A stretch of 51,393 bases of DNA, from NCBI GenBank assembly GCA_000004985.1, contig GG738939.1, one strand, 5' to 3'. The translations under genes were made by a program, and so were the position numbers. Source of the stretch: Naegleria gruberi (Eukaryota). The notes under the pieces were generated by a model, which saw nothing but the letters and a program-made list of their open reading frames with translations, did no database searches and had not been told where the DNA came from. Position 1 is the first letter of the stretch; every line of letters begins with the position of its first letter. Of this stretch, positions 1-51,393 are shown piece after piece.

Positions 1-424
1 CAAACCCAAACCGCGAACCCAAACCCAAACCCAAACCCAAACCCAAACCCAAACCCAAACCCAAACCCAAACCCAAACCCAAACCCAAACCCAAACCCAA
101 ACCCAAACCCAAACCCAAACCCAAACCCAAACCCAAACCCAAACCCAAACCCAAACCCAAACCCAAACCCAAACCCAAACCCAAACCCAAACCCAAACCC
201 AAACCCCCAAACCCAAACCCAAACCCAAACCCAAACCCAAACCCAAACCCAAACCCAAACCCAAACCCAAACCCAAACCCAAACCCAAACCCAAACCCAA
301 ACCAAACCCAAACCCAAACCCAAACCCAAACCCAAACCCAAACCAAAACCCAAACCCAAACCCAAACCCAAACCCAAACCCAAACCCAAACCCAAACCCA
401 AACCAAAACCCAAACCCAAACCCA
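1..424 (+). repeat. Telomeric repeat array, (CCCAAA)n of about 70 units; G-strand TTTGGG lies on the minus strand, the orientation expected for a left chromosome end
   Basis: Seen directly: near-perfect hexamer CCCAAA repeated from nt 1 to 424. Variant units occur at 11-14 (GCGAAC), about 205 (CCCCCAAA), about 301 (CCAAA), and about 345 and 405 (CCAAAA). The array starts at the window edge and the C-rich strand reads 5'->3' inward, as at a left telomere. Confidence 0.9.
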
Positions 425-445
425 GAACTAAAAATAGAATTCTTC

Positions 446-476
446 TAAACCCAACCTTCAAACCCTAGCCCAAAAT
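446..476. repeat. Degenerate telomere-like repeats in the telomere to subtelomere transition
   Basis: ctaaacccaaccttcaaaccctagcccaaaa: decayed CCCAAA/CCCTAAA-like units immediately proximal to the perfect array. Confidence 0.5.
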
Positions 477-6400: not shown

Positions 6401-6499
6401 NNNNNNNNNNNNNNNNNNNNNNNNNNNNNNNNNNNNNNNNNNNNNNNNNNNNNNNNNNNNNNNNNNNNNNNNNNNNNNNTTCAATGAACAAATGTGGTA

Positions 6500-7075
6500 T
6501 CATGAATTTCTGCATATCCTCCTTGATGAGATTGAGGCTCCCTTCAATTGTTTGATCTCTTCTGTATTAATTTTTGTAAAGGTAGTGGAGGATAAACTTG
6601 TGCAATCTTGTGTAATTTGTAACTCGTCTCCAAGTGCTAGATCACAACTAGAATCATAGATCACATACATTGTTTTAAAATTTTCTGGTTTGGTAACAAT
6701 GGAATGTAATTGCACTTTACGACTGGCAAGGTACTTGTCAACTACCACAAATTGAGAGTCTTTCTTGAGTTGTTCTGGTAAACTGTTTTGAAGAGCTGAC
6801 TTGTTCTCAGTTGTTTGGGAATGATTAATATTCAAATCAGAGTCTTTCTTGAGTTTGTTTGTAAGAGATGACTCTGACTTGTTCTCTGCACGGAAAGGAT
6901 GTTTCCTTCCTTTACTTTTCTTTTTTAAAACTTGGAAACCTTTAGAATCATCATCTGATGTTATGAAATCTTCATCAGTAGAAGGAGGAGCAACATTTTC
7001 TTGCTTGTGAGAAGAAGTGGATTCTATTTCTTGATCGTTATCGCTTGTGAGTAGGTTGAAACTGTTGAAAGACAT
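6500..7075 (-). CDS. Hypothetical protein, 191 aa, Ser/Asp/Lys-rich and low-complexity, with no recognisable domain
   Basis: Genuine ATG at 7075..7073 (revcomp ATGTCTTTCAAC) and TGA stop at 6502..6500. Complete ORF in visible sequence. Divergent from the gene at 7244 with a 168-bp spacer. Confidence 0.5.
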   Translation of the reverse strand: MSFNSFNLLTSDNDQEIESTSSHKQENVAPPSTDEDFITSDDDSKGFQVLKKKSKGRKHPFRAENKSESSLTNKLKKDSDLNINHSQTTENKSALQNSLPEQLKKDSQFVVVDKYLASRKVQLHSIVTKPENFKTMYVIYDSSCDLALGDELQITQDCTSLSSTTFTKINTEEIKQLKGASISSRRICRNS

Positions 7076-7243
7076 TCGAAACTATTTTGTTAATTGTGTG
7101 TAAAGATGTTGTTGTTGTATTTTTTTGTAACAAGTACTTAAAAAGAAAGTGAAAATTCATGATTATTTATTATCATCCTCGATGAAACAAATTCCTACTT
7201 GTTGAATTAAGGCAAGGGTATTTGCAAAAATACAAATAAAAAA

Positions 7244-7465
7244 ATGTCCAAACATGTTTCCTCAAGCAACAGCACTAAGGTACCAAGAACTCAAGAAATA
7301 AAAAGAGAAAAGAACAAAGAATCCGACGATGAGGAAATCAAAATTGAAGAAAAGCTTCAACAACAGGAATACCAATTGTTGTCATCATCCAATACATTAA
7401 ATAGCAAAATGAGAAGAGAAGGCTCTGTGATGGTTTATGAAAGTTTTTACACATCAGAAAATAAT
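7244..7465 (+). CDS. 5' end of a protein-coding gene (N-terminal 74 aa: MSKHVSSSNSTKVPRTQEIKREKNKESDDEEIKIEE...), continuing into the masked block
   Basis: ATG at 7244 in an A-rich context (aaaaaaaATGtcc). The open frame runs to the mask edge at 7465. The product is charged and low-complexity, with no recognisable domain in the visible part. Confidence 0.4.
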
Positions 7466-30854: not shown

Positions 30855-33019
30855 GGTATCTACGTTGGCAGCAATGAATCCGAAATCCTTTCTATTGGTG
30901 AATTTAGATATCGAAGGAGCTTATGACTCTGTTGAAGTTTCTGTTATTGAATTAGCTCTAAAACATTGCAAATTTCCAATTAATTTAATTCAATTTATTA
31001 TTAATTCTTACAAAGAACACACTCTACAACTTGAAATCAATAACCACTTGTCCGAACCAATTACAAAATCCAGGGGAATCCCACAAGGTTGTCCATTATC
31101 ACCCCTGATTTATGATTGTATAACACAATTAATTATTGACAAAAGTATAGATGTTTGGAAATTACCAAAAGATCCTTGTAATCTTAATGCAAACGAAATA
31201 GGTATCCTTGGTTTTGCAGATGATATGTATCTTATTGCTGACACATCTGATATTAATACCGATTATAACGAAAGATTAAATGAATTAGATAGATGGGTAA
31301 CTGATCTTGCGTTAAAAATCAACCCTTCTAAATCAGTTGCAACAATACTGACTGAAAATGAATTGGATATAACCCCAAAAATTAATAATGTGAAAATTCC
31401 AATTCAGAAAAATATCAGAGTATTAGGTCATTATCCTTGGGAAGACCAACTTGTACAAGAAGATATTGAAAAAAGAATTTCCCTGTTTGAACTTTCCCTA
31501 AAATATCTTCCAATTAGATCATTAGAAATAAGAAATTTTAGAAAAGTAATCCAAGCTAAAGTATTGAGCCTATTCACACATATTACTCGTAGTAATGTTA
31601 TTTCAACCAAATATTGTGATAGAATTAATATTGCAATTAGACAAGCAATAAGAAGAAGAGGTAACTTACATTCAGCTACATCTACAGATTGGTTTCACTT
31701 ACCACTAGATCAAGGAGGTCTTAATATCCCTAAAATTGATGAATTTATTGAAAGACTACACATTAAGACCATTATGCAATTGAGAAATCAAAGAAATACC
31801 CTTGTCAGAAAAGCGTTTAACTGGGGAATTGATAATATTTCAAATTATAATTCAATATTCCATCAAATGAATCAAAGTTTGAAGCATTTTGACTTAACAT
31901 TTAATCAAAACTCAATAGAACCTTTAAGACCTTCAATTCTACAAGGTCAAAACTTTGAAATTTATACTGATGGATCGAAAATGGATGAAAATTCGACAGG
32001 ATTTGGTATCTACTTTCATAAAGGGGTAATTGAAGGAAATGAACAATTAAGCTTTAATATCGATGGAAGATACTCTCATAATGTAGCTGAATTGACTGCA
32101 ATTCTTATGGCTTCTAAATTATTACCTAATAATTCAAAAGCTACTATATTTACAGACAGCAAAATATCTATTGATATTCTAAATCCAAGATATGATGGGA
32201 AATTTTCCATTTTTAAAGATGAATTTTATAGAACAATATTTGATAAGAATTTGAAAATTAAATTGGAAAAGGTAAAAGGACATGTTGATCCTAATAATAT
32301 AATCGTTGATGAATTAGCCAAAAAGGGTTCGAAACAATATAATATTTCCATTGATATTAGAAAGCTTCTTCCTAATGCCATGTATTTAGAAAATAATGGA
32401 ACCATTATATTTGATCTACAGAATTATTTGAAAGGTATTCAAAGAGATAGGAGAGCTACCATTGCTAGAGATAAATCCAACCTAATTATAACCAAGGGAT
32501 GGTCCTCAGCAAATATCAAATACCTAAATTCTCATTTAGAACCTTACACCAAATTCTGTATCTGGAGAAACATGACAAATAATCATATTAGACAATACAA
32601 ACCCGTAAGCTGCTCGCACTGTGGAAGAATAGTTGAATTAGAACATTATATTTATTACTGTCCTGAAATGAGTGAAAAGCGAAACTACTTCTTGAATAAG
32701 TTCTATGAAATAACAAAATATAGAGCAATATTACATGATAGAAATGAATTTAGGTTTTCAAACAGATGGAAAGGATTCTTGATTAATCATAGAGGATTAT
32801 TAGATGAGAACAATCAAGATGAAATTAGAAGAAAATATCCATCAATTATTAGAAACTGGGTGGAAATTCAATCTTTACTGTCGTTACTTGTTGGTAAAGC
32901 ACATAAGAGATATTATCGTGATTTTCTTAAAACAAGAAAGAAAAACAAGAAGAAAACCAAAGAATAATCTATTTCGATTTCTAAAAAGATCCAATGGGTC
33001 TTTAATAAAGTTCAAAATA
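30855..33019 (+). mobile_element. Non-LTR (LINE-like) retrotransposon, copy A, 3' portion only; the 5' part is masked
   Basis: ORF2 C-terminal part with RT motifs (LVNLDIEGAYDSV, FADDMYLIA), an RNase H domain (FEIYTDGSK...AELTAIL...FTDSK...GHVDPNNIIVDELAKKG) and a CCHC knuckle (CSHCGRIVELEHYIYYCPE). 30855-31290 is 100% identical to 39566-40001 of copy B. A-rich 3' terminus ...gttcaaaataa. Confidence 0.9.
30856..32967 (+). CDS. LINE ORF2 C-terminal fragment (reverse transcriptase, RNase H, CCHC zinc knuckle); TAA stop at 32965-32967
   Basis: Frame continuous from the mask edge to the TAA. YxDD-type FADD motif, RNase H D/E/D/H residues, C-x2-C-x9-H-x4-C. The M at 30865 in the ORF track is a TTG codon (Leu), not a start. 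Confidence 0.9.
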   Translation, partial: VSTLAAMNPKSFLLVNLDIEGAYDSVEVSVIELALKHCKFPINLIQFIINSYKEHTLQLEINNHLSEPITKSRGIPQGCPLSPLIYDCITQLIIDKSIDVWKLPKDPCNLNANEIGILGFADDMYLIADTSDINTDYNERLNELDRWVTDLALKINPSKSVATILTENELDITPKINNVKIPIQKNIRVLGHYPWEDQLVQEDIEKRISLFELSLKYLPIRSLEIRNFRKVIQAKVLSLFTHITRSNVISTKYCDRINIAIRQAIRRRGNLHSATSTDWFHLPLDQGGLNIPKIDEFIERLHIKTIMQLRNQRNTLVRKAFNWGIDNISNYNSIFHQMNQSLKHFDLTFNQNSIEPLRPSILQGQNFEIYTDGSKMDENSTGFGIYFHKGVIEGNEQLSFNIDGRYSHNVAELTAILMASKLLPNNSKATIFTDSKISIDILNPRYDGKFSIFKDEFYRTIFDKNLKIKLEKVKGHVDPNNIIVDELAKKGSKQYNISIDIRKLLPNAMYLENNGTIIFDLQNYLKGIQRDRRATIARDKSNLIITKGWSSANIKYLNSHLEPYTKFCIWRNMTNNHIRQYKPVSCSHCGRIVELEHYIYYCPEMSEKRNYFLNKFYEITKYRAILHDRNEFRFSNRWKGFLINHRGLLDENNQDEIRRKYPSIIRNWVEIQSLLSLLVGKAHKRYYRDFLKTRKKNKKKTKE

Positions 33020-33036
33020 ATTTTTTTTTATTTGTG
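33020..33036 (+). repeat. 17-nt junction motif aTTTTTTTTTATTTGTG at the 3' boundary of LINE copy A, identical to the motif at the 5' boundary of copy B
   Basis: Exact 17/17 match to 36536..36552. Flanking sequence diverges immediately on both sides. The minus-strand reading is CACAAATAAAAAAAAAt. Confidence 0.8.
33027..33032 (-). promoter_or_regulatory. Candidate AATAAA polyadenylation signal for the minus-strand sterol desaturase gene, lying inside the LINE junction motif
   Basis: Plus-strand tttatt at 33027-33032 reads AATAAA on the minus strand, about 96 nt downstream of the TAA at 33130..33128. Confidence 0.35.
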
Positions 33037-33127
33037 GAATTGAACTCCGAAATAGTACAACTCCGGATTGAACTATAAAGTTCCTTATTTGTCAAGTGTT
33101 TAGTATTGAACACTGATGCTTACAAGG

Positions 33128-33968
33128 TTATTCTTGATGAATTTTATTCGATTCTGCTAGTTTCTTCTTTTGTTGTTTGAGTTTCCACTCAAAGAATCCA
33201 CCACAAGTTCCACACCAAATATCCCACCACATGAAATTCGATGAAAATACTCCACTACATCTACGATGATGAAAATCATGAAAATCAGCACCTCCAATTA
33301 AGTTTGGCGCCAAATTATTCGGAGAAAATGGGAAATCAAAGCCCGAATGAGTTTCACAAGCTGCCAATTGTCTAAGGTTGACAAAGATTAAGAGAGTAAG
33401 GAAGTGTGGACGGAGGAGAAGAGGTCCTAGAAAGGTGGCGAATCCAAGTATTAAAATTTCTAAGGGATGGGCGAAACTAGTGGAAAGTATAGTTGGAGAT
33501 TCGAATTCGTGATGGATTTTGTGGATGACGTGGTAGGCCCATGGTGTGTGAAGCCACCTATGGAACCAGTAGTGAGCTGTGTCTTCCATGAAGAAACAGA
33601 AAGCTAATTGAAGGAGAAGAACTTTCCAATTTGGGATATTCGAAACTTCGAGACTAAAGTAGTCAATTTGAGTAAGAAAGTGAAAAGCAACTGCATACAT
33701 TGGAAGAATCACCAAAAAGTAAATAAATAACAAATAGAATGTTGCCTTAACAATTTTCATTCCACTATTTTTCCTTTTCTGAAATAGTTTCGTCAAGGTT
33801 TCCAATAAAAATTTATATACTTACTGGTTGAATCTTATATTTCCTCAGAAAATCAAAGTCGCACCACTCTACCAACCACATCAATCCACTAGGAATGAAA
33901 TAATTCAAAAACAAAATGACAAATGGCAAGACAATTGTCACCATCGTGAGTGAATAATTCTCCAACAT
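33128..33968 (-). CDS. Fatty acid hydroxylase / sterol desaturase superfamily protein (ERG25/MSMO1-like C-4 methylsterol oxidase type). Two exons, join(33968..33825, 33778..33128), 264 aa
   Basis: Three histidine boxes (HRWLH, HKIHH, HDFHH) and N-terminal TM helices. Exon 1 starts at ATG 33968 and has 48 codons. A 46-nt intron (33824..33779, GTAAGT...TTTCAG) is phase 0/0 and removes an in-frame TAA. Exon 2 runs to TAA 33130..33128. The M at 33805 in the ORF track is a TTG codon inside the intron. Confidence 0.75.
33779..33824 (-). other. Spliceosomal intron, 46 nt, GTAAGT...TTTCAG
   Basis: The donor GT at 33824/33823 directly follows codon 48 (CCA). The acceptor AG at 33780/33779 precedes in-frame AAA AGG. 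Without splicing the frame hits TAA after 3 codons. Confidence 0.6.
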
Positions 33969-35940
33969 GAAATCCACAATTTCACCATTCCACCATCAAA
34001 GAATATTCAATTCTGATAAGTTATCATCTGGATAATCTGTTGATATATTAGATTCATNNNNNNNNNNNNNNNNNNNNNNNNNNNNNNNNNNNNNNNNNNN
34101 NNNNNNNNNNNNNNNNNNNNNNNNNNNNNNNNNNNNNNNNNNNNNNNNNNNNNNNNNNNNNNNNNNNNNNNNNNNNNNNNNNNNNNNNNNNNNNNNNNNN
34201 NNNNNNNNNNNNNNNNNNNNNNNNNNNNNNNNNNNNNNNNNNNNNNNNNNNNNNNNNNNNNNNNNNNNNNNNNNNNNNNNNNNNNNNNNNNNNNNNNNNN
34301 NNNNNNNNNNNNNNNNNNNNNNNNNNNNNNNNNNNNNNNNNNNNNNNNNNNNNNNNNNNNNNNNNNNNNNNNNNNNNNNNNNNNNNNNNNNNNNNNNNNN
34401 NNNNNNNNNNNNNNNNNNNNNNNNNNNNNNNNNNNNNNNNNNNNNNNNNNNNNNNNNNNNNNNNNNNNNNNNNNNNNNNNNNNNNNNNNNNNNNNNNNNN
34501 NNNNNNNNNNNNNNNNNNNNNNNNNNNNNNNNNNNNNNNNNNNNNNNNNNNNNNNNNNNNNNNNNNNNNNNNNNNNNNNNNNNNNNNNNNNNNNNNNNNN
34601 NNNNNNNNNNNNNNNNNNNNNNNNNNNNNNNNNNNNNNNNNNNNNNNNNNNNNNNNNNNNNNNNNNNNNNNNNNNNNNNNNNNNNNNNNNNNNNNNNNNN
34701 NNNNNNNNNNNNNNNNNNNNNNNNNNNNNNNNNNNNNNNNNNNNNNNNNNNNNNNNNNNNNNNNNNNNNNNNNNNNNNNNNNNNNNNNNNNNNNNNNNNN
34801 NNNNNNNNNNNNNNNNNNNNNNNNNNNNNNNNNNNNNNNNNNNNNNNNNNNNNNNNNNNNNNNNNNNNNNNNNNNNNNNNNNNNNNNNNNNNNNNNNNNN
34901 NNNNNNNNNNNNNNNNNNNNNNNNNNNNNNNNNNNNNNNNNNNNNNNNNNNNNNNNNNNNNNNNNNNNNNNNNNNNNNNNNNNNNNNNNNNNNNNNNNNN
35001 NNNNNNNNNNNNNNNNNNNNNNNNNNNNNNNNNNNNNNNNNNNNNNNNNNNNNNNNNNNNNNNNNNNNNNNNNNNNNNNNNNNNNNNNNNNNNNNNNNNN
35101 NNNNNNNNNNNNNNNNNNNNNNNNNNNNNNNNNNNNNNNNNNNNNNNNNNNNNNNNNNNNNNNNNNNNNNNNNNNNNNNNNNNNNNNNNNNNNNNNNNNN
35201 NNNNNNNNNNNNNNNNNNNNNNNNNNNNNNNNNNNNNNNNNNNNNNNNNNNNNNNNNNNNNNNNNNNNNNNNNNNNNNNNNNNNNNNNNNNNNNNNNNNN
35301 NNNNNNNNNNNNNNNNNNNNNNNNNNNNNNNNNNNNNNNNNNNNNNNNNNNNNNNNNNNNNNNNNNNNNNNNNNNNNNNNNNNNNNNNNNNNNNNNNNNN
35401 NNNNNNNNNNNNNNNNNNNNNNNNNNNNNNNNNNNNNNNNNNNNNNNNNNNNNNNNNNNNNNNNNNNNNNNNNNNNNNNNNNNNNNNNNNNNNNNNNNNN
35501 NNNNNNNNNNNNNNNNNNNNNNNNNNNNNNNNNNNNNNNNNNNNNNNNNNNNNNNNNNNNNNNNNNNNNNNNNNNNNNNNNNNNNNNNNNNNNNNNNNNN
35601 NNNNNNNNNNNNNNNNNNNNNNNNNNNNNNNNNNNNNNNNNNNNNNNNNNNNNNNNNNNNNNNNNNNNNNNNNNNNNNNNNNNNNNNNNNNNNNNNNNNN
35701 NNNNNNNNNNNNNNNNNNNNNNNNNNNNNNNNNNNNNNNNNNNNNNNNNNNNNNNNNNNNNNNNNNNNNNNNNNNNNNNNNNNNNNNNNNNNNNNNNNNN
35801 NNNNNNNNNNNNNNNNNNNNNNNNNNNNNNNNNNNNNNNNNNNNNNNNNNNNNNNNNNNNNNNNNNNNNNNNNNNNNNNNNNNNNNNNNNNNNNNNNNNN
35901 NNNNNNNNNNNNNNNNNNNNNNNNNNNNNNNNNNNNNNNN

Positions 35941-36537
35941 AACTATTCCAATAATGTTACTTATACTGCAATTCACAAAATTTAAATATTTTGTGCTAAT
36001 TCTGACTGACCCATTATCAATTATTAAGTTTGACATTTTCACACTTGGCATTCCTTCCATAATGAATAGTTTCGTATTTCTAATTATTAAATATTCAAGT
36101 TCCAAATTAATATTCTTTGAAAATTGAATAAATTCATCACACTCAATTACTGATAGAGAATCTGTTTCGAATGATTTCATTCTAAATGTTTGAAAACTAT
36201 TAAATATTTGATAATCCTGCAAATTATATGAACATCGCTTCATTTCTCCCATCACCATCACATCCAATATTCGAAACTCATCTATTTTCACATTTTCCAC
36301 AATAAAATTCACAATTTGCATAAAATCACCACATGGATCATCGGGTGAGAAACAGGCTTTGGAAGTTGTATTCGAAATTCCATCATCATTCAAGTAGAAA
36401 AACAATTCATTATCATCTATTAGATTGTGTGATGAAATTAAATTCGAATTTTCGGAAGAACACAAGCAAACACCAATCATCGATGATGATAGCATCAAAA
36501 AGGCGAGAAGCAGGGTTATATGTTGTGGTGATGACAT
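35941..36537 (-). CDS. N-terminal part of a secreted leucine-rich protein (signal peptide MSSPQHITLLLAFLMLSSSMIGVCLC); continues into the masked block
   Basis: ATG 36537..36535 in context aaaaaaaaATGTCATCA. Hydrophobic signal peptide. Downstream Leu/Ile/Asn-rich repeat-like segments (ELEYLIIRNTKLFIMEG..NLIIDNGSVRIS..LNFVNCSISNI). The frame is open to the mask edge. The track shows the same frame reaching a stop at 34054, but that stretch is masked. Confidence 0.55.
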
Positions 36538-36552
36538 TTTTTTTTATTTGTG
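36536..36552 (+). repeat. 17-nt junction motif aTTTTTTTTTATTTGTG immediately 5' of LINE copy B
   Basis: Identical to 33020..33036. The first T (36537) is the complement of the A of the minus-strand ATG of the secreted leucine-rich gene. Confidence 0.8.
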
Positions 36553-36565
36553 CGAAGTAAAAAAA

Positions 36566-37948
36566 ATGTCTAAACATCATCCTCCGTGGATTACAAAGAA
36601 CATAACAAAAGCAGGCCCCAGCTCTGCCAGAAATCTAAAGTCCACTAAAAGTCACACTAAGGAATTAATTTCCGTACCTAAAAATAATTTAAATTTTAAT
36701 TTTAAAATGTCTTATGCTGATGTTGTTAAACAAATTCCGAGATCGGAATCAAAATTGAAATCGGAATCAAAACAAATCGTGATTGCCAACCGAACTATTA
36801 ATATCAAGTCGGTTAATTTAAATTCAAGACAAAAAAAATTCAGTAGAAATATTAAGATGTCAGATAATAAGCAAATCGACTACGAAACTTGTATTTCAGT
36901 ATTTGTCCAACAACCAAATGAAGCATTTGAAGATTTAATTGTTAAGGAGGTTGGTCACTTATGTAATAGAATTTATGTTCCAGAATTGAAACCAAAACTT
37001 GTTCAATTAATTATAGATAGCAAAGAAAATTATCAAGAAGCAATAAGAATTCTCAATAATATGGTTACAAAAACTAATACGAAATTCCTTCCTTCCCCTA
37101 TGAACTTTACTCCAACTAATCATACCGTCAAATATCATTCAGAAAAATTAGATTTTATTAATCACCAAATTTCTAATATTATTGATGCAGTATGGCATAG
37201 TAAGATTAATATCTCACAAATGAATCTCAGTTTTGATAGAACTACTCAAATCTACAAGTTAAGAGTTGCTCTTATTAACTCAAATGGAAAAGATGAGCTA
37301 TTGAAAAATGGTTTTCAAGAATATAAGTCAATGGATCAAATTCTTAAAGAATGTCAATTTGAAGCCACCTGCAATTTCCCTACATCATTCCAAGAAAAGG
37401 ATATCATTGAGGCAGTTAAAGAAATTAGTAAATTGGCTGACGTTCAATTTCGTCGCAGTAACCTTACTATTACCAAGTTGAAAGCAACCTATCTCCATAA
37501 TAGAGAATATTATGCAGTTAATTACAAACTTCAAAACGAAGAGGAATTGAAAGCATTTATATCAAAGGCGATTAGATGTAAGGGATCTAAAGATAATTCC
37601 AAGAAAATCTTTAAAAGATTTAAATCTACTGCTGAATACTTGAAGAAGAAATTACAATCAAATAATACTGATAACCATGAAAATTTAACCAGTAGTTCTA
37701 TCATTATTGATATTAATAAGAGACTTACTAGAATGGAAGAGAAAATTGAAACTCAAGTTGCAAAGACTTCTAATCATGAACTAAAATTACAAAATTTTGA
37801 TGAAAGAATGAACAAGTTCTTAGAAAGTTTGGAACAATTAAGATTTTTAACAATGAATTTCAAGAATATTGGTAATGCAAAGGAAGGTATGAACGACGAA
37901 GGCTATGAGGATTACAATCCTCATGTAAATCACTCTCGTTATGATTGA
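36566..37948 (+). CDS. LINE ORF1 protein, about 460 aa, Lys/Asn-rich with a predicted coiled-coil C-terminal region
   Basis: First in-frame ATG at 36566 (aaaaaaATGTCTAAACATCAT), TGA at 37946-37948. No recognisable zinc knuckle. Heptad-like segment MEEKIETQVAKTSNHELKLQNFDERMNKFLESLEQL. Confidence 0.7.
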   Translation: MSKHHPPWITKNITKAGPSSARNLKSTKSHTKELISVPKNNLNFNFKMSYADVVKQIPRSESKLKSESKQIVIANRTINIKSVNLNSRQKKFSRNIKMSDNKQIDYETCISVFVQQPNEAFEDLIVKEVGHLCNRIYVPELKPKLVQLIIDSKENYQEAIRILNNMVTKTNTKFLPSPMNFTPTNHTVKYHSEKLDFINHQISNIIDAVWHSKINISQMNLSFDRTTQIYKLRVALINSNGKDELLKNGFQEYKSMDQILKECQFEATCNFPTSFQEKDIIEAVKEISKLADVQFRRSNLTITKLKATYLHNREYYAVNYKLQNEEELKAFISKAIRCKGSKDNSKKIFKRFKSTAEYLKKKLQSNNTDNHENLTSSSIIIDINKRLTRMEEKIETQVAKTSNHELKLQNFDERMNKFLESLEQLRFLTMNFKNIGNAKEGMNDEGYEDYNPHVNHSRYD

Positions 37949-40001
37949 TTTAAAATCTACTATCCGTGTGGGATGCTATAATGTAAATGGTCTAATTAGG
38001 ACAGGAAATTCTAAAGAAAAACTCATACAACCAATTAATGCAATGTGTAGATCTAATGGTATTCACATAATGTGTATAACAGAAACACATATCAATAATT
38101 ATGAATCTCAACAGAAATGTTATAATGAGTGTAATGGACATATTCTATTCAATTCCTTAATGAATACAAGAAAAGCTTGCAAGGGAACAGCAATTCTTCA
38201 TTTCTTAAATAACAAGAGAAAGAGATTTATTTCTAATCATAATATCATCAATGGTAAATTACAATGGTTTCGTTTCAAATCTAGAAACAAGATATTTAAT
38301 ATCATTGCGGGCTATTTATCAGGGAAAAAGGAAGAAGAAGATGATGATCAATTAGCTATGTCTCATATTATTGAAATTATGACTAAATTTAATGATGAAT
38401 ATTTTATTATAGCTGGTGATTTGAATATTGATAGTAATAACCCTATTTCCAAAAGAGATAAAGAATGGATGAATCTTCTAAAACAACTCAATATGTATGA
38501 AGACAAACAGCTTAGTCAAATATCATATAGAAGAAAACAGAAAGACAAGATCATTGAAACACACCCAGACCATATATTTGTATCAAATAATTTGAAAATA
38601 ATTGGAGGGAAAAGTCTACCATCTATAACTCACAATGATCATATACCTTTTTATATAGACATTCAATATGATTGCGATCCGACTTGGAGGGCATCTATTT
38701 CAAGGAAACATATAGAAACGTTATGTAGTACAATTAATCAAGAAACCTATTTATCATTTGATGAACTAGAACGGAATATTAAGAATAATTTTTTAAAGTA
38801 TTCATATAGGAATGATAAGCTTAATGTTAAATTCCTTTCGTCTAGAAAGCGAAAAGATATTAGAAGAATAGAATCAAAAATCAGAGAAATAATGGACAAA
38901 AAAGATCCAAAACAAGAACAGGAATTAATTACACTCCAAACAGAACTGAAAACTGTTTATAGAGAGGCTGCAAAAGAAATAAGAACAAATCTATTGGATC
39001 AATTTAATAGCCATAATTCTTCAGCAATGTACAGATTTGATAGACACCTTAAAGAAAAGACAATTAATTGGAATGAAATCTCATTTGATGAATCGACAGT
39101 TGTCAACTTCTTTCAGGATAAATTTACATCAAAAGTTGAAGATATTAATTTCATTCCAAGTAGGTCAACAATTAAGTATGGACCAAAAAGAATCAAATTT
39201 AAATTGGAAACTATCAAAAAAGCCCTTTTAAGAATGAGTTCTAATACTCCAGGAACAGATAATATTCCATTGTCTATAATAAGAGGTTTAAAAGATGAAC
39301 ATCTTCAACTCATTTGTGACAAATTTAATCAGTGCTTGGATAATGGTAATATTCCTTTGGAATGGAAAAATGGTTGGGTAAAATTAATTCCTAAACGAGA
39401 CATTATTTCTCTCAAAGATATTCGTCCGATTACTATCCTTCCAATTATGTATAGATTAATGTTTAATATTATTGCTTTTAAATTAAGGAAATGGGCTTCA
39501 GAGAATATAAATATACGTCAACAAGCATTTATACCAAAGAGGAATACCCTTAATCATGCAATATTGGTATCTACGTTGGCAGCAATGAATCCGAAATCCT
39601 TTCTATTGGTGAATTTAGATATCGAAGGAGCTTATGACTCTGTTGAAGTTTCTGTTATTGAATTAGCTCTAAAACATTGCAAATTTCCAATTAATTTAAT
39701 TCAATTTATTATTAATTCTTACAAAGAACACACTCTACAACTTGAAATCAATAACCACTTGTCCGAACCAATTACAAAATCCAGGGGAATCCCACAAGGT
39801 TGTCCATTATCACCCCTGATTTATGATTGTATAACACAATTAATTATTGACAAAAGTATAGATGTTTGGAAATTACCAAAAGATCCTTGTAATCTTAATG
39901 CAAACGAAATAGGTATCCTTGGTTTTGCAGATGATATGTATCTTATTGCTGACACATCTGATATTAATACCGATTATAACGAAAGATTAAATGAATTAGA
40001 T
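37941..40001 (+). CDS. LINE ORF2, N-terminal part: apurinic/apyrimidinic-type endonuclease domain and beginning of reverse transcriptase (partial; continues into the mask)
   Basis: ATG at 37941 lies within ATGATTGA and overlaps the ORF1 stop, in the +2 frame. Endonuclease motifs as above. RT motifs FIPKRNTLNHAI..LVNLDIEGAYDSV. Predicted full ORF2 is about 1245 aa, ending at 41678 by homology with copy A. Confidence 0.9.
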
Positions 40002-43000: not shown

Positions 43001-43819
43001 NNNNNNNNNNNNNNNNNNNNNNNNNNNNNNNNNNNNNNNNNNNNNNNNNNNNNNNNNNNNNNNNNNNNNNNNNNNNNNNNNNNNNNNNNNNNNNNNNNNN
43101 NNNNNNNNNNNNNNNNNNNNNNNNNNNNNNNNNNNNNNNNNNNNNNNNNNNNNNNNNNNNNNNNNNNNNNNNNNNNNNNNNNNNNNNNNNNNNNNNNNNN
43201 NNNNNNNNNNNNNNNNNNNNNNNNNNNNNNNNNNNNNNNNNNNNNNNNNNNNNNNNNNNNNNNNNNNNNNNNNNNNNNNNNNNNNNNNNNNNNNNNNNNN
43301 NNNNNNNNNNNNNNNNNNNNNNNNNNNNNNNNNNNNNNNNNNNNNNNNNNNNNNNNNNNNNNNNNNNNNNNNNNNNNNNNNNNNNNNNNNNNNNNNNNNN
43401 NNNNNNNNNNNNNNNNNNNNNNNNNNNNNNNNNNNNNNNNNNNNNNNNNNNNNNNNNNNNNNNNNNNNNNNNNNNNNNNNNNNNNNNNNNNNNNNNNNNN
43501 NNNNNNNNNNNNNNNNNNNNNNNNNNNNNNNNNNNNNNNNNNNNNNNNNNNNNNNNNNNNNNNNNNNNNNNNNNNNNNNNNNNNNNNNNNNNNNNNNNNN
43601 NNNNNNNNNNNNNNNNNNNNNNNNNNNNNNNNNNNNNNNNNNNNNNNNNNNNNNNNNNNNNNNNNNNNNNNNNNNNNNNNNNNNNNNNNNNNNNNNNNNN
43701 NNNNNNNNNNNNNNNNNNNNNNNNNNNNNNNNNNNNNNNNNNNNNNNNNNNNNNNNNNNNNNNNNNNNNNNNNNNNNNNNNNNNNNNNNNNNNNNNNNNN
43801 NNNNNNNNNNNNTCATTAG

Positions 43820-44224
43820 TCAACTGCAAAATTAACTATTCTTAATATTAGTTGCAATCGAATTAATGATGAAGGAGCCAAATCACTTAGTCAATTGAAC
43901 CAATTAACAAACCTAAACATTAGACTAAACGAAATTGGAGATGAAGGCGCCAAATTTATTGGAAAAATGCAAAATCTAACTCTCCTCACCATTGATCACA
44001 ATCAAATTCAAACTCAGGGTGCAAAGTATCTCAGTAACTTGGTCAACTTGAAAACTTTATACATTCATGGAAATGAAAATATTGAAAGGGAAGGTTCCAA
44101 GGCAATTAGTGAAATGAAAGAGTTGAGAAGTGTAAAACTCGATCATATTCATATATTGTATGCAAATGTTAGATTTGGAATGAATGTTTCAGTTTCGTAT
44201 TACAACAAAAATAATTACATTTAA
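43820..44224 (+). CDS. Terminal exon of an RNI-type leucine-rich-repeat protein (24-aa repeats LxxLxLxxNxIGDEGAKxL). Upstream exons lie in the masked block
   Basis: Acceptor tcattAG|TCAACTGC at 43818/43819, with an in-frame TAG immediately upstream, so this is an exon start. Four or more tandem 24-residue LRRs. TAA at 44222-44224. AATAAA at 44228-44233. Confidence 0.65.
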   Translation, partial: STAKLTILNISCNRINDEGAKSLSQLNQLTNLNIRLNEIGDEGAKFIGKMQNLTLLTIDHNQIQTQGAKYLSNLVNLKTLYIHGNENIEREGSKAISEMKELRSVKLDHIHILYANVRFGMNVSVSYYNKNNYI

Positions 44225-44227
44225 TTG

Positions 44228-44233
44228 AATAAA
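44228..44233 (+). promoter_or_regulatory. AATAAA polyadenylation signal of the LRR gene
   Basis: gaATAAAc, 4 nt after the stop codon. Confidence 0.4.
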
Positions 44234-44335
44234 CAACAATTTCAATTTCTTACTCTGTTACAATTAAATATCAGTATGATATATATTTGAGTATAGGGGA
44301 AAAATTAATAGCATTGTAAAATATTAAATATATAT

Positions 44336-44797
44336 TTAGTCAACTTGTAACAATTTCAATAAATTCTCATAGTGCTCCATATCCCTTTCAATTCCATTAA
44401 TAATTTCCATCCACCACAATGAGGTTTCATCATATCCATACTCTTGCTCATGTTCTTCCCTCGATTTTTCACACTCTTTTCGATCCAATTCCAAATCTGA
44501 TAAAATCTTGAGAATTCCATCTTTCATTTCCTTCTTCATTTCTATCAAGTCAATAAATTGTTGTTGTGGTGAATTTGTATTTTCATCAAATTTCTTCTCC
44601 AAAATCTCCAGCATCATATTTGGAATTAAAAGACGATTGTAATATTCATTCCATAAATTTCTCCAAAAAATTCTGGAATTCATTACAATATTATGAGTTG
44701 ACCGATCGATTTGTAATATCGTTCCGAGGTGTTTTATGGAGAGAAAGTTGAAAATCTCTATGAGCACCTCTGGAGGCAAATCACTAAATGATGACAT
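44336..44797 (-). CDS. Small F-box protein, 153 aa
   Basis: ATG 44797..44795 (aaaaaaaaaATGTCATCA). N-terminal F-box LPPEVLIEIFNFLSIKHLGTIL. Acidic C-terminal half. Stop at 44338..44336. Single exon. Confidence 0.7.
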   Translation of the reverse strand: MSSFSDLPPEVLIEIFNFLSIKHLGTILQIDRSTHNIVMNSRIFWRNLWNEYYNRLLIPNMMLEILEKKFDENTNSPQQQFIDLIEMKKEMKDGILKILSDLELDRKECEKSREEHEQEYGYDETSLWWMEIINGIERDMEHYENLLKLLQVD

Positions 44798-44853
44798 TTT
44801 TTTTTTTGATTTAATTTAGATCAGGCAAAGTTCATCAGTGTTTGAATTTAATC

Positions 44854-44877
44854 TTTCAGTTTCGAATTACAACAAAA
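44854..44877 (+). pseudogene. Relic of the 3' end of a paralogous LRR gene: 24-nt segment matching 44187-44210 at 23/24, including the last codons and stop region
   Basis: tttcagtttcgAattacaacaaaa versus tttcagtttcgTattacaacaaaa. Encodes ..SVSNYNKI* versus ..SVSYYNKNNYI*. Lies in the spacer between the F-box start and the sphingomyelinase stop. Confidence 0.4.
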
Positions 44878-44927
44878 TTTAGGAAGAAACTGTATTTCAA
44901 AGAAACCTAGGTGTTATTTTAGTTTAT

Positions 44928-45919
44928 TTAGACACAATATGGATGTTTTCTAGCCATATTATAATTCAGCTCAGTTGTGATACCCAAATGATCACTCGGA
45001 GTTGGAGTTGAATCTCCAAATAATTGGAGTTTGAAGGAATTATTGGAATTCCATTCCAAAATTCTACTAAATTTATCAACCATGATATGATCCATTCCAG
45101 TATTTCTTTCTGGATCATCAGAACAATCGCCAATTTCCCAATTTAATCCATTCACACAGAAAGTTGCCTTATTTGGATCAATTGACTGATATCCATATCC
45201 AGCAAGTGTTTCATAACCTTCTGGTTGCGTCAATGGTCCACTATTCAAATCACCAACCAAGATATTAGGTCTCTTCATGATAACCATCCTAGAAAACTCT
45301 GGTTGATACATTACTGGCAAGTCAATCCCAAAATTAAAAGGAAAGTGTGACTCCATAATAAATAATCCATTGATACACATCTCTAATAATCCTCTACTCA
45401 ATAAAAATGAAGGATAGGAAGTGTAATTGGCACGTGAGATTGGTGTCTTACTCAGAACCATCAATCCATTGGAGCCGTCATAGAGAAATTCCTGACCTGT
45501 GTGTCCAGGAGTGTAACAATTGGCTATATTCTTATTCTCAACGACAGATGTCAGGACACAGGATATACATTTAAAGTTTCCATAGGCAGCTCGACTCAAA
45601 AATTCAGCACAAGGTCCCAAAGTTGTCCACGAAAGTGTCAAATTTTTTTCACGGACACAATGAAGGAAAGGAAGAGCGAATCTATGGAATGAATCATCCG
45701 TACAAGATGCTTCATTCACAACTTCCTTGTGTCCATGGAAGGAGTATGGATATGAGGATTTCAGCTCTTCAGAAATTAGGTGGGAATGAGATTGGAGCCA
45801 AACTTCTTGGAGAAAGACTACATCGAGGTCTTTTGGTATGGTTTCTATGATTTTCTTGACATTGACTGGTGTGCCAGGTACTAGAGCAGTATTAAAGGAA
45901 GCAATCTTTAAGTTATGTA
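44928..45919 (-). CDS. Neutral sphingomyelinase-like Mg-dependent phosphodiesterase (SMPD2/ISC1-type EEP fold). The N-terminal few codons are masked and there is no C-terminal transmembrane anchor
   Basis: The frame is open from the mask edge: ..HNLKIASFNTALVPG..DLDVVFLQEVW..YPYSFHGH.. through MDHIMVDKF and PSDHLGITTEL to TAA at 44930..44928. It aligns by eye motif-for-motif with human SMPD2 (LRIFNLNCWGIP / LLEEVWSEQ / RIDYVLYK / PLSDHEALMATL). The M in the ORF track at 45719 is GTG (Val). Confidence 0.8.
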
Positions 45920-49950: not shown

Positions 49951-50609
49951 TATCTACCCTCTTCTTATTGGAATAAAAACCAAAATCAATGTTAAAAGCA
50001 GCTTTTCCCAAAACGTCTATTCAACCAAGGTTGTGTTATGATATAACAGATCGACTCAGATCAGTAACTCATTGAGCTACGAAATTACTTACCCAATGTA
50101 AGATTCGAATATTCATTTACATCCAAAATCATAGATCCATTCTCTTTCAATCTCTCATTCCAAATTTCAAACAATAAATCACAAGACTTGTCAGCAACCT
50201 TACACACATACATTAAATTCTTTGGTGTGAAAGCTGCCGAACAAATCTTGTAATGTTTCTTCCATTTTTCAGTATTAGTAGCTGTCAAAATATTATCCTC
50301 TCCAAAGAAATTCACCACCTCATATCCTGGTTTCTCAAACAAATGACCCTTAGTAATGAAATATTCCTTCAACATTTTCGGATCACTAATAAAAACAAGT
50401 GGTGTGGTAGAAGTAGCAATACTCAAAGTTTGAGTTTCTGCATCTCCATACAACAAACAAGCCTTATCCAAATCCTCATCACTTGTTAGATAGAGATGAG
50501 TGGACAAGAAGGGAATTCTTATCGGAGAAAGTTCGAATACTTGCATCACCCCCGGAATGTGCTTAATTTTCGAGTGGATTTTATGGAGGGTGAATCGAAC
50601 AGTTTTCAT
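49951..50609 (-). CDS. Cytochrome P450, N-terminal region (CYP3-clan-like). Exon 1 50609..50093, intron 50092..50017, exon 2 50016..mask edge; continues into the mask
   Basis: ATG 50609..50607. Motifs IPG..PLVFISDPKMLKEYF..FGEDNILTATNTEKWKKHYKICSAAFTP (the W-x3-R/H-x7-F helix-C motif). Donor G|GTAAGT at 50093/50092 and acceptor aatAG|AC at 50018/50017 splice to ..EYSNLTLDVLGKAAFNIDFG.., the canonical TLDVIxxxAFG region. Reading through unspliced gives LTLGK*. Confidence 0.8.
50017..50092 (-). other. Spliceosomal intron, 76 nt, GTAAGT...AATAG, phase 1
   Basis: Splicing restores the conserved P450 sequence LTLDVLGKAAF. Unspliced read-through terminates at TAA 50087..50085. Confidence 0.65.
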
Positions 50610-50707
50610 AAAAAAGCATGAACCTAATTAAGGTTAGGAATTGTGAAATTTTCTATAAAAACAACTCAAAAAAACAATTTTTTCAAAATTTTCAAAAACA
50701 AAGCACA

Positions 50708-50998
50708 ATGACTCACAAATTCAAGAAAACTTATAACTCAAACCAAACAAGAAAATACGGCTATTATCACTGCACCGATTGTAACAGACATTGGGAAAGT
50801 GGGAATTCCTGGGAAGGTTTCACTCAACAATGTTCTCATTGCTTTCGACCAGTTTATGCCTACAAATTGGAGAGTTTAATTAGAAAAGATGAATTAGAAG
50901 AATTATTTGATGTGATTGATCGTTCAAAACCTCATCGTCAAGATTTATGTATGAAATGTCAAAAATTGGGATTTTATTGTAGGGAGAGTAAATATTAG
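50708..50998 (+). CDS. Small zinc-finger protein with a Zar1-like 3CxxC domain (97 aa from ATG 50708; an alternative upstream ATG at 50618 gives 126 aa)
   Basis: YGYYHCTDCNRHWESGNSWEGFTQQCSHCF...KPHRQDLCMKCQKLGFYC matches the Zar1/zf-3CxxC signature (YGYYHCKDC ... PHRQDLCGRCK). TAG at 50996-50998. AATAAA at 51021-51026. Confidence 0.6.
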   Translation: MTHKFKKTYNSNQTRKYGYYHCTDCNRHWESGNSWEGFTQQCSHCFRPVYAYKLESLIRKDELEELFDVIDRSKPHRQDLCMKCQKLGFYCRESKY

Positions 50999-51020
50999 AG
51001 AAAGTTTAATAAGGTTATTA

Positions 51021-51026
51021 AATAAA
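51021..51026 (+). promoter_or_regulatory. AATAAA polyadenylation signal downstream of the zf-3CxxC gene
   Basis: ttaAATAAAatg, 23 nt after the stop. Confidence 0.35.
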
Positions 51027-51240
51027 ATGCAAATCGTTTTGTAATTTTGTCACTTTCCATTTATAGAGTTTAATGATTTGTCATGGATCAACAATTTCAA
51101 TATCATTGTAAACTCTATGAAAGGTGAGTGTTGACCCCGCAAAATCACCTGATATCACTTGTTTTTGGCCAACAACACAGCGATATTGGTGACAGCTTTA
51201 AAAAATCATTCAAAAAAAAAACGACATCTGAAGGGCAAAC

Positions 51241-51393
51241 ATGCTGTTGAGTAACAGGTTGCATTATGCACTCTTGGTAGTGTTGGTATTATCCTCCCTC
51301 TTTGTGGTGTTGGCAGAACATGAACCTCTATCTGTCATTTCACAAAATCCTCCTTCGATGGCATTTGACAGCAATTTGAAATTGCCAAAAACA
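51241..51393 (+). CDS. 5' end of a gene encoding a protein with an N-terminal signal peptide (MLLSNRLHYALLVVLVLSSLFVVLA|EHEP...), partial at the window edge
   Basis: ATG 51241 (ggcaaacATGctg). 51 codons open to the window end. Hydrophobic core flanked by charged residues, with an AXA-like cleavage site. Confidence 0.45.
   Translation, partial: MLLSNRLHYALLVVLVLSSLFVVLAEHEPLSVISQNPPSMAFDSNLKLPKT

Follow-up and report, generated by a model that had tools for sequence, protein, structure and literature searches.

A TTTGGG repeat array of telomere type at one end of a Naegleria gruberi NEG-M scaffold

A six-base repeat that reads TTTGGG towards the edge of a DNA stretch raises two questions: which organism carries such an array, and whether the point where the letters begin is also the end of a chromosome. 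The stretch of DNA analysed here, 51,393 nucleotides in total and referred to as the window, is an entire scaffold of the 2010 assembly of Naegleria gruberi NEG-M, with the array at one end. Here it is proposed, with high confidence, that the array is a telomere at one end of this 51.4-kb scaffold, most likely made by telomerase. The bases analysed amount to 12,815 of the 51,393 (positions 1-1015, 6480-7465, 30855-34057, 35941-40001, 43813-45919 and 49951-51393), and all statements on the flanks, including genes, repeats and the subtelomere, cover these 12,815 bases, about 25% of the window.

Anatomy of the terminal array

Tandem Repeats Finder reports positions 1-424 as one array of period 6, having 70.3 copies, 96% matches and a score of 793, and a unit-by-unit parse of the same positions gives 63 perfect CCCAAA units out of about 70. 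A partial unit opens the array at base 1; on the + strand the array contains 212 A, 210 C and 2 G, but no T. The features of this end are as follows, the variant units being taken from the unit parse.

1-424, + strand: telomeric array of about 70 units, 63 of them perfect, with five variants
11-17, + strand (inside 11-23): variant unit CCGCGAA
204-211, + strand: variant unit CCCCCAAA
302-306, + strand: variant unit CCAAA
343-348 and 403-408, + strand: variant units CCAAAA
421-476, + strand: degenerate telomere-to-subtelomere transition of 56 bp, overlapping the last 4 bases of the Tandem Repeats Finder array
477-1015: AT-rich subtelomeric flank, without a convincing gene in the stretch examined

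The + strand carries the C-rich (CCCAAA)n; the G-rich (TTTGGG)n thus reads 5' to 3' towards base 1 and the scaffold end, as expected at the left end of a chromosome. With its A-less (TTTGGG)n repeat, the array belongs to the minisatellites of the T(n)A(m)G(o) telomere type and has the short (5-8 nt) G/T-rich tandem unit of such repeats; its end position and outward G-strand polarity were found at the scaffold level only. Searching for (CCCAAA)3 with at most 1 mismatch gave 62 matches, all on the + strand and all inside 18-426, versus 0 matches in 100 dinucleotide-preserving shuffles. An origin as a chance microsatellite is rejected. Additionally, the quadruplex rule G3-N(1-7) x4 has 14 non-overlapping matches inside the array.

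The distal units are homogeneous and the proximal ones degenerate, having four of the five variant units in the proximal half. The sole variant of the distal half, CCGCGAA, holds both G residues of the array and lies about six bases from the scaffold edge; it may correspond to a low-quality read end and not to a real variant unit. On the proximal side, telomere-like fragments (CCCAGAA, AAACCCAACC and AAACCCTAGCCCAAAA) persist in the transition at 421-476. The array length of 424 bp was probably set by the sequencing read length and would not represent the true telomere length. An earlier note on this DNA had described about 70 CCCAAA units running from the window edge in left-end orientation, with a few variants and a decayed proximal transition, and the repeat counts and the fragments listed above bear out this description.

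A second CCCAAA/TTTGGG array was not found elsewhere in the 12,815 bases examined, and neither were tandems of TTAGGC, TTAGGG or TTGGGG in the same bases. Tandems of CCCCAA are absent from the array at 1-424. The opposite end of the scaffold (51000-51393) consists of unique sequence without an array.

Host affinity, retroelement copies and prior record of the motif

Naegleria is a genus of heterolobosean amoeboflagellates, Heterolobosea being a branch of Discoba that has received little study. The flanks encode the following identifiable genes and elements.

6500-7075, - strand: first identifiable gene counted from the telomere, about 6 kb in, corresponding to XP_002668882.1 (NAEGRDRAFT_76193)
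33131-33944, - strand: C-4 sterol methyl oxidase gene with an FA_hydroxylase domain, in two exons, corresponding to XP_002668883.1
30855-33027: non-LTR (LINE-like) retroelement, copy A
36536-40001, continuing to about 41741: non-LTR (LINE-like) retroelement, copy B
36425-37948: ORF1 of the LINE-like element, whose ORF2 carries endonuclease, reverse transcriptase (RT) and RNase H domains

The open reading frame at 6500-7075 on the - strand is identical at every residue to the N. gruberi predicted protein XP_002668882.1. The sterol oxidase XP_002668883.1 of N. gruberi NEG-M is encoded with its residues 1-40 at 33944-33825 (100% identity) and its residues 37-256 at 33790-33131 (98.6% identity), and its next-best named relatives are from Naegleria lovaniensis (61% identity) and Acrasis kona (51% identity), both Heterolobosea. 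XP_002668883.1 is a member of the 90%-identity cluster to which the top hit of the hydroxylase belongs. The N. lovaniensis homologue of this fatty-acid hydroxylase lies on a contig of 775,596 bp, and the stretch examined around the gene stops about 73 kb from the nearer contig end. Pfam domains in the flanks are those of a fatty-acid hydroxylase, of F-box, LRR and 3CxxC zinc-ribbon proteins and of a cytochrome P450 N-terminus; a non-LTR retroelement is recognised as well, by its domains for endonuclease, reverse transcriptase and RNase H. Rfam and tRNA scans of the 12,815 bases examined gave zero hits.

The N. gruberi origin of the window is assigned because two annotated N. gruberi proteins are encoded in it. 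The gene content had appeared in the earlier note as that of a compact metazoan, even a nematode-like one; this was dropped, since the flank proteins are those of N. gruberi, the nearest named relatives belong to Naegleria and Acrasis, and tandems of TTAGGC/GCCTAA are absent from the 12,815 bases examined. The exclusion of a Paramecium-type ciliate in the earlier note is retained: the examined flanks have long standard-code open reading frames that match N. gruberi, and the array has no CCCCAA tandems, in place of the mixed TTGGGG/TTTGGG repeats and ciliate code of a ciliate origin.

The motif itself has a prior record. For N. gruberi, Fulneckova et al. 2013 (Genome Biol Evol 5:468, PMC3622300) give TTTGGG as candidate telomere repeat, and the genome cited there is that of Fritz-Laylin et al. 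2010. In that paper, 143 public genome assemblies were surveyed by string searches for six known repeat types and, where the strings failed, the 5' and 3' scaffold ends were viewed by eye for TG/CA-rich minisatellites, after which the terminal versus internal distribution of the repeats was judged; according to its authors, the terminal position still has to be confirmed by experiments. That TTTGGG also caps the other chromosome ends of N. gruberi is predicted from this survey of scaffold ends. In the searched literature, neither a later report on Naegleria telomere repeats beyond the 2013 paper nor an experimental validation of Naegleria TTTGGG ends (BAL31, terminal restriction fragments or TRAP) was found. 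Nanopore reads of N. gruberi are available, among them those used in PMC12695648.

The TTTGGG end of N. gruberi is already known, and its finding here is a rediscovery of the 2013 in silico result on the same assembly; only the unit-level anatomy of one end is new (63 perfect and five variant units, with a decayed junction of 56 bp). The two statements of the earlier note that the hexamer fits none of the obvious candidate organisms and that it may be an unreported telomere motif are not supported, given the N. gruberi origin of the window and this publication (PMC3622300), and no sequence feature demands the non-canonical maintenance mechanism offered as the other option. The discovery value is small, the link between motif and organism having been in print since 2013 from the same assembly. 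For telomere motifs that appear as orphans, the taxonomy of the flanking genes should be checked before novelty is claimed.

The two copies of the LINE-like element overlap in sequence, 30855-31290 being 100% identical to 39566-40001 over the 436 bp of overlap examined, at an offset of 8,711 bp. The best named relative of its ORF2 is a Naegleria fowleri protein with 38% identity. A 16-nt sequence, TTTTTTTTTATTTGTG, flanks copy B immediately on its 5' side (36536-36551) and copy A immediately on its 3' side (33012-33027), and the two sites resemble the two halves of the target-site duplication of a single insertion, one half at each copy. This arrangement suggests either a tandem duplication of 8.7 kb that includes the LINE or an assembly artefact.

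A metagenome contig of 2575 bp, k127_84016 (L001; ENA ERZ929261, PRJEB11402), is 97-98% identical to the regions of the sterol-oxidase and LRR genes, and was compared with window positions 33035-34054, 36492-36544 and 43815-44299. The contig joins window 36492-36544 to 33035 across a 16-base gap, which corresponds to an empty site without the LINE. Because k127_84016 carries this empty site, the insertion in NEG-M is suggested to be recent or polymorphic. Judged from its sequence, the same contig also shows that a very close relative of N. gruberi is present in the environmental sample from which it comes.

The proposed telomere and its alternatives

Templated synthesis by telomerase is expected to yield an array in which a six-base G/T-rich unit is repeated homogeneously and with strict strand polarity. 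Telomerase is taken here as the most likely origin of the array because of its homogeneous unit and strict polarity, together with the homogeneity of the distal units, the proximal variants and the decayed junction, and the scaffold end would correspond to the physical end of a chromosome. As part of the proposed mechanism, telomerase would add TTTGGG to the 3' end of the G-rich strand, using as a template a short CCCAAA-type stretch predicted in the telomerase RNA subunit, and the C-rich strand would be filled in after extension of the G-rich strand. Continuous resynthesis would keep the distal units homogeneous, and the proximal units, no longer renewed, may gather mutations.

The alternative that survives best is a telomere-like block of interstitial position or a truncation in the assembly; the real chromosome would then carry the array internally, with the scaffold breaking within it. 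Assemblies often break at repeats, 86 of the 120 metagenome (CCCAAA)6 loci described below are internal among the matches listed, and internal telomeric blocks are present in many genomes too, as noted in the survey of 2013 (PMC3622300). However, the left-end polarity, the decay on the proximal side only and the length of about 70 units argue against an internal position, as do the lack of another array copy in the 12,815 bases examined and the place of N. gruberi among the genomes given a candidate terminal repeat in the survey (PMC3622300). An interstitial block has unique sequence on both sides and, as the scaffold stands, there is no sequence distal to the array. An internal position is considered unlikely on these grounds.

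It is also quite unlikely that Naegleria ends are kept by something other than a conventional enzyme of TERT and telomerase RNA, for example, through recombination or an unusual template RNA. The more specific case in which a terminal TTTGGG array is kept up in an ALT-like manner, through recombination or break-induced replication and not by telomerase, is very unlikely. In its favour, the searched literature gave no report of Naegleria TERT, telomerase or telomerase RNA, nor of a heterolobosean telomerase RNA; however, the homogeneous six-base G/T-rich unit and the strict polarity fit templated telomerase synthesis, and ALT-type arrays usually have interspersed variants, whereas 63 of about 70 units are identical here. 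Least likely of all is a contaminant or chimeric end, for instance if the assembly had fused a ciliate telomere of the Paramecium type to Naegleria DNA. Paramecium telomeres do include TTTGGG as a repeat variant, but they mix it with TTGGGG, and the present array has no CCCCAA tandems. Its junction gives way to AT-rich sequence by gradual decay, and the first gene that could be identified, at a distance of about 6 kb, encodes an annotated N. gruberi protein.

TTTGGG among known telomere motifs and in metagenome contigs

As a telomere, the N. gruberi array shares with those of Paramecium the TTTGGG hexamer and the polarity of the G-rich strand towards the end, but it is pure TTTGGG, without TTGGGG units, and its host is a standard-code heterolobosean in contrast to the ciliate Paramecium. 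Similarly to the canonical TTAGGG, its repeat has six bases, three of them consecutive G, and belongs to the T(n)A(m)G(o) class; it is presumably telomerase-made. The two motifs are one base apart, with a change of A to T at position 3, which makes TTTGGG a derived motif within Discoba; TTAGGG is considered ancestral for eukaryotes and for Excavata (PMC3622300). Compared with the candidate telomere repeat of N. gruberi in the same source, the organism, the assembly, the motif and the kind of evidence (an oriented array at a scaffold end) are all alike, and there is no substantive difference (PMC3622300).

Motifs without A have also been reported in insects with TeloSearchLR, namely, TTTGGGTTTG in Hyposoter dolosus and TTTGG in Sitophilus oryzae (PMC12134996). 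These share with the N. gruberi repeat the T/G-only unit and the way in which they were found, through terminal stranded occupancy in sequence data; in contrast, they have other unit lengths and belong to unrelated lineages, so these motifs arose independently.

Scanning metagenome contigs for (CCCAAA)6 gave at least 120 loci. Among the matches listed, 34 of 120 have the array no more than 30 bases from a true contig end, and these terminal arrays have the telomeric polarity in 26 cases versus the opposite one in 8 (binomial p = 0.003). Given this terminal position and polar bias, TTTGGG behaves as a terminal and polar repeat also in environmental eukaryotes other than N. gruberi. The flank GC of the terminal arrays goes from 21% to 68%, so TTTGGG-type ends seem to be found in several unrelated environmental eukaryotes. 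None of the (CCCAAA)6 matches listed resembles the window by blastn or tblastx, and no second N. gruberi end was found among them.

One metagenome assembly, JAESGV01 (GenBank WGS), has at least 13 contigs that end in TTTGGG arrays, all with telomeric polarity (L008, L030, L032, L043, L055, L078, L079, L083, L084, L085, L103, L116 and L121). These thirteen contigs have a flank GC of 21-39% and long standard-code open reading frames. Contig L085 has a long retrotransposon-like open reading frame reading from the array and encodes two PPR proteins with a DYW-type C-terminus; in a homology search, one of these PPR proteins matched, besides itself, only PPR proteins of plants, with 19-25% identity. 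In contig L084, CCCCAA units are mixed with CCCAAA units near the junction. Outside this assembly, a marine-type contig with 63% GC (L052, Ga0163111_10301227) has in positions 1-120 a terminal CCCAAA array followed inwards by degenerate CCCTAA/CCCTAG, that is, TTTGGG distal to TTAGGG-like repeats, and this order could record a change of telomere motif in some eukaryote.
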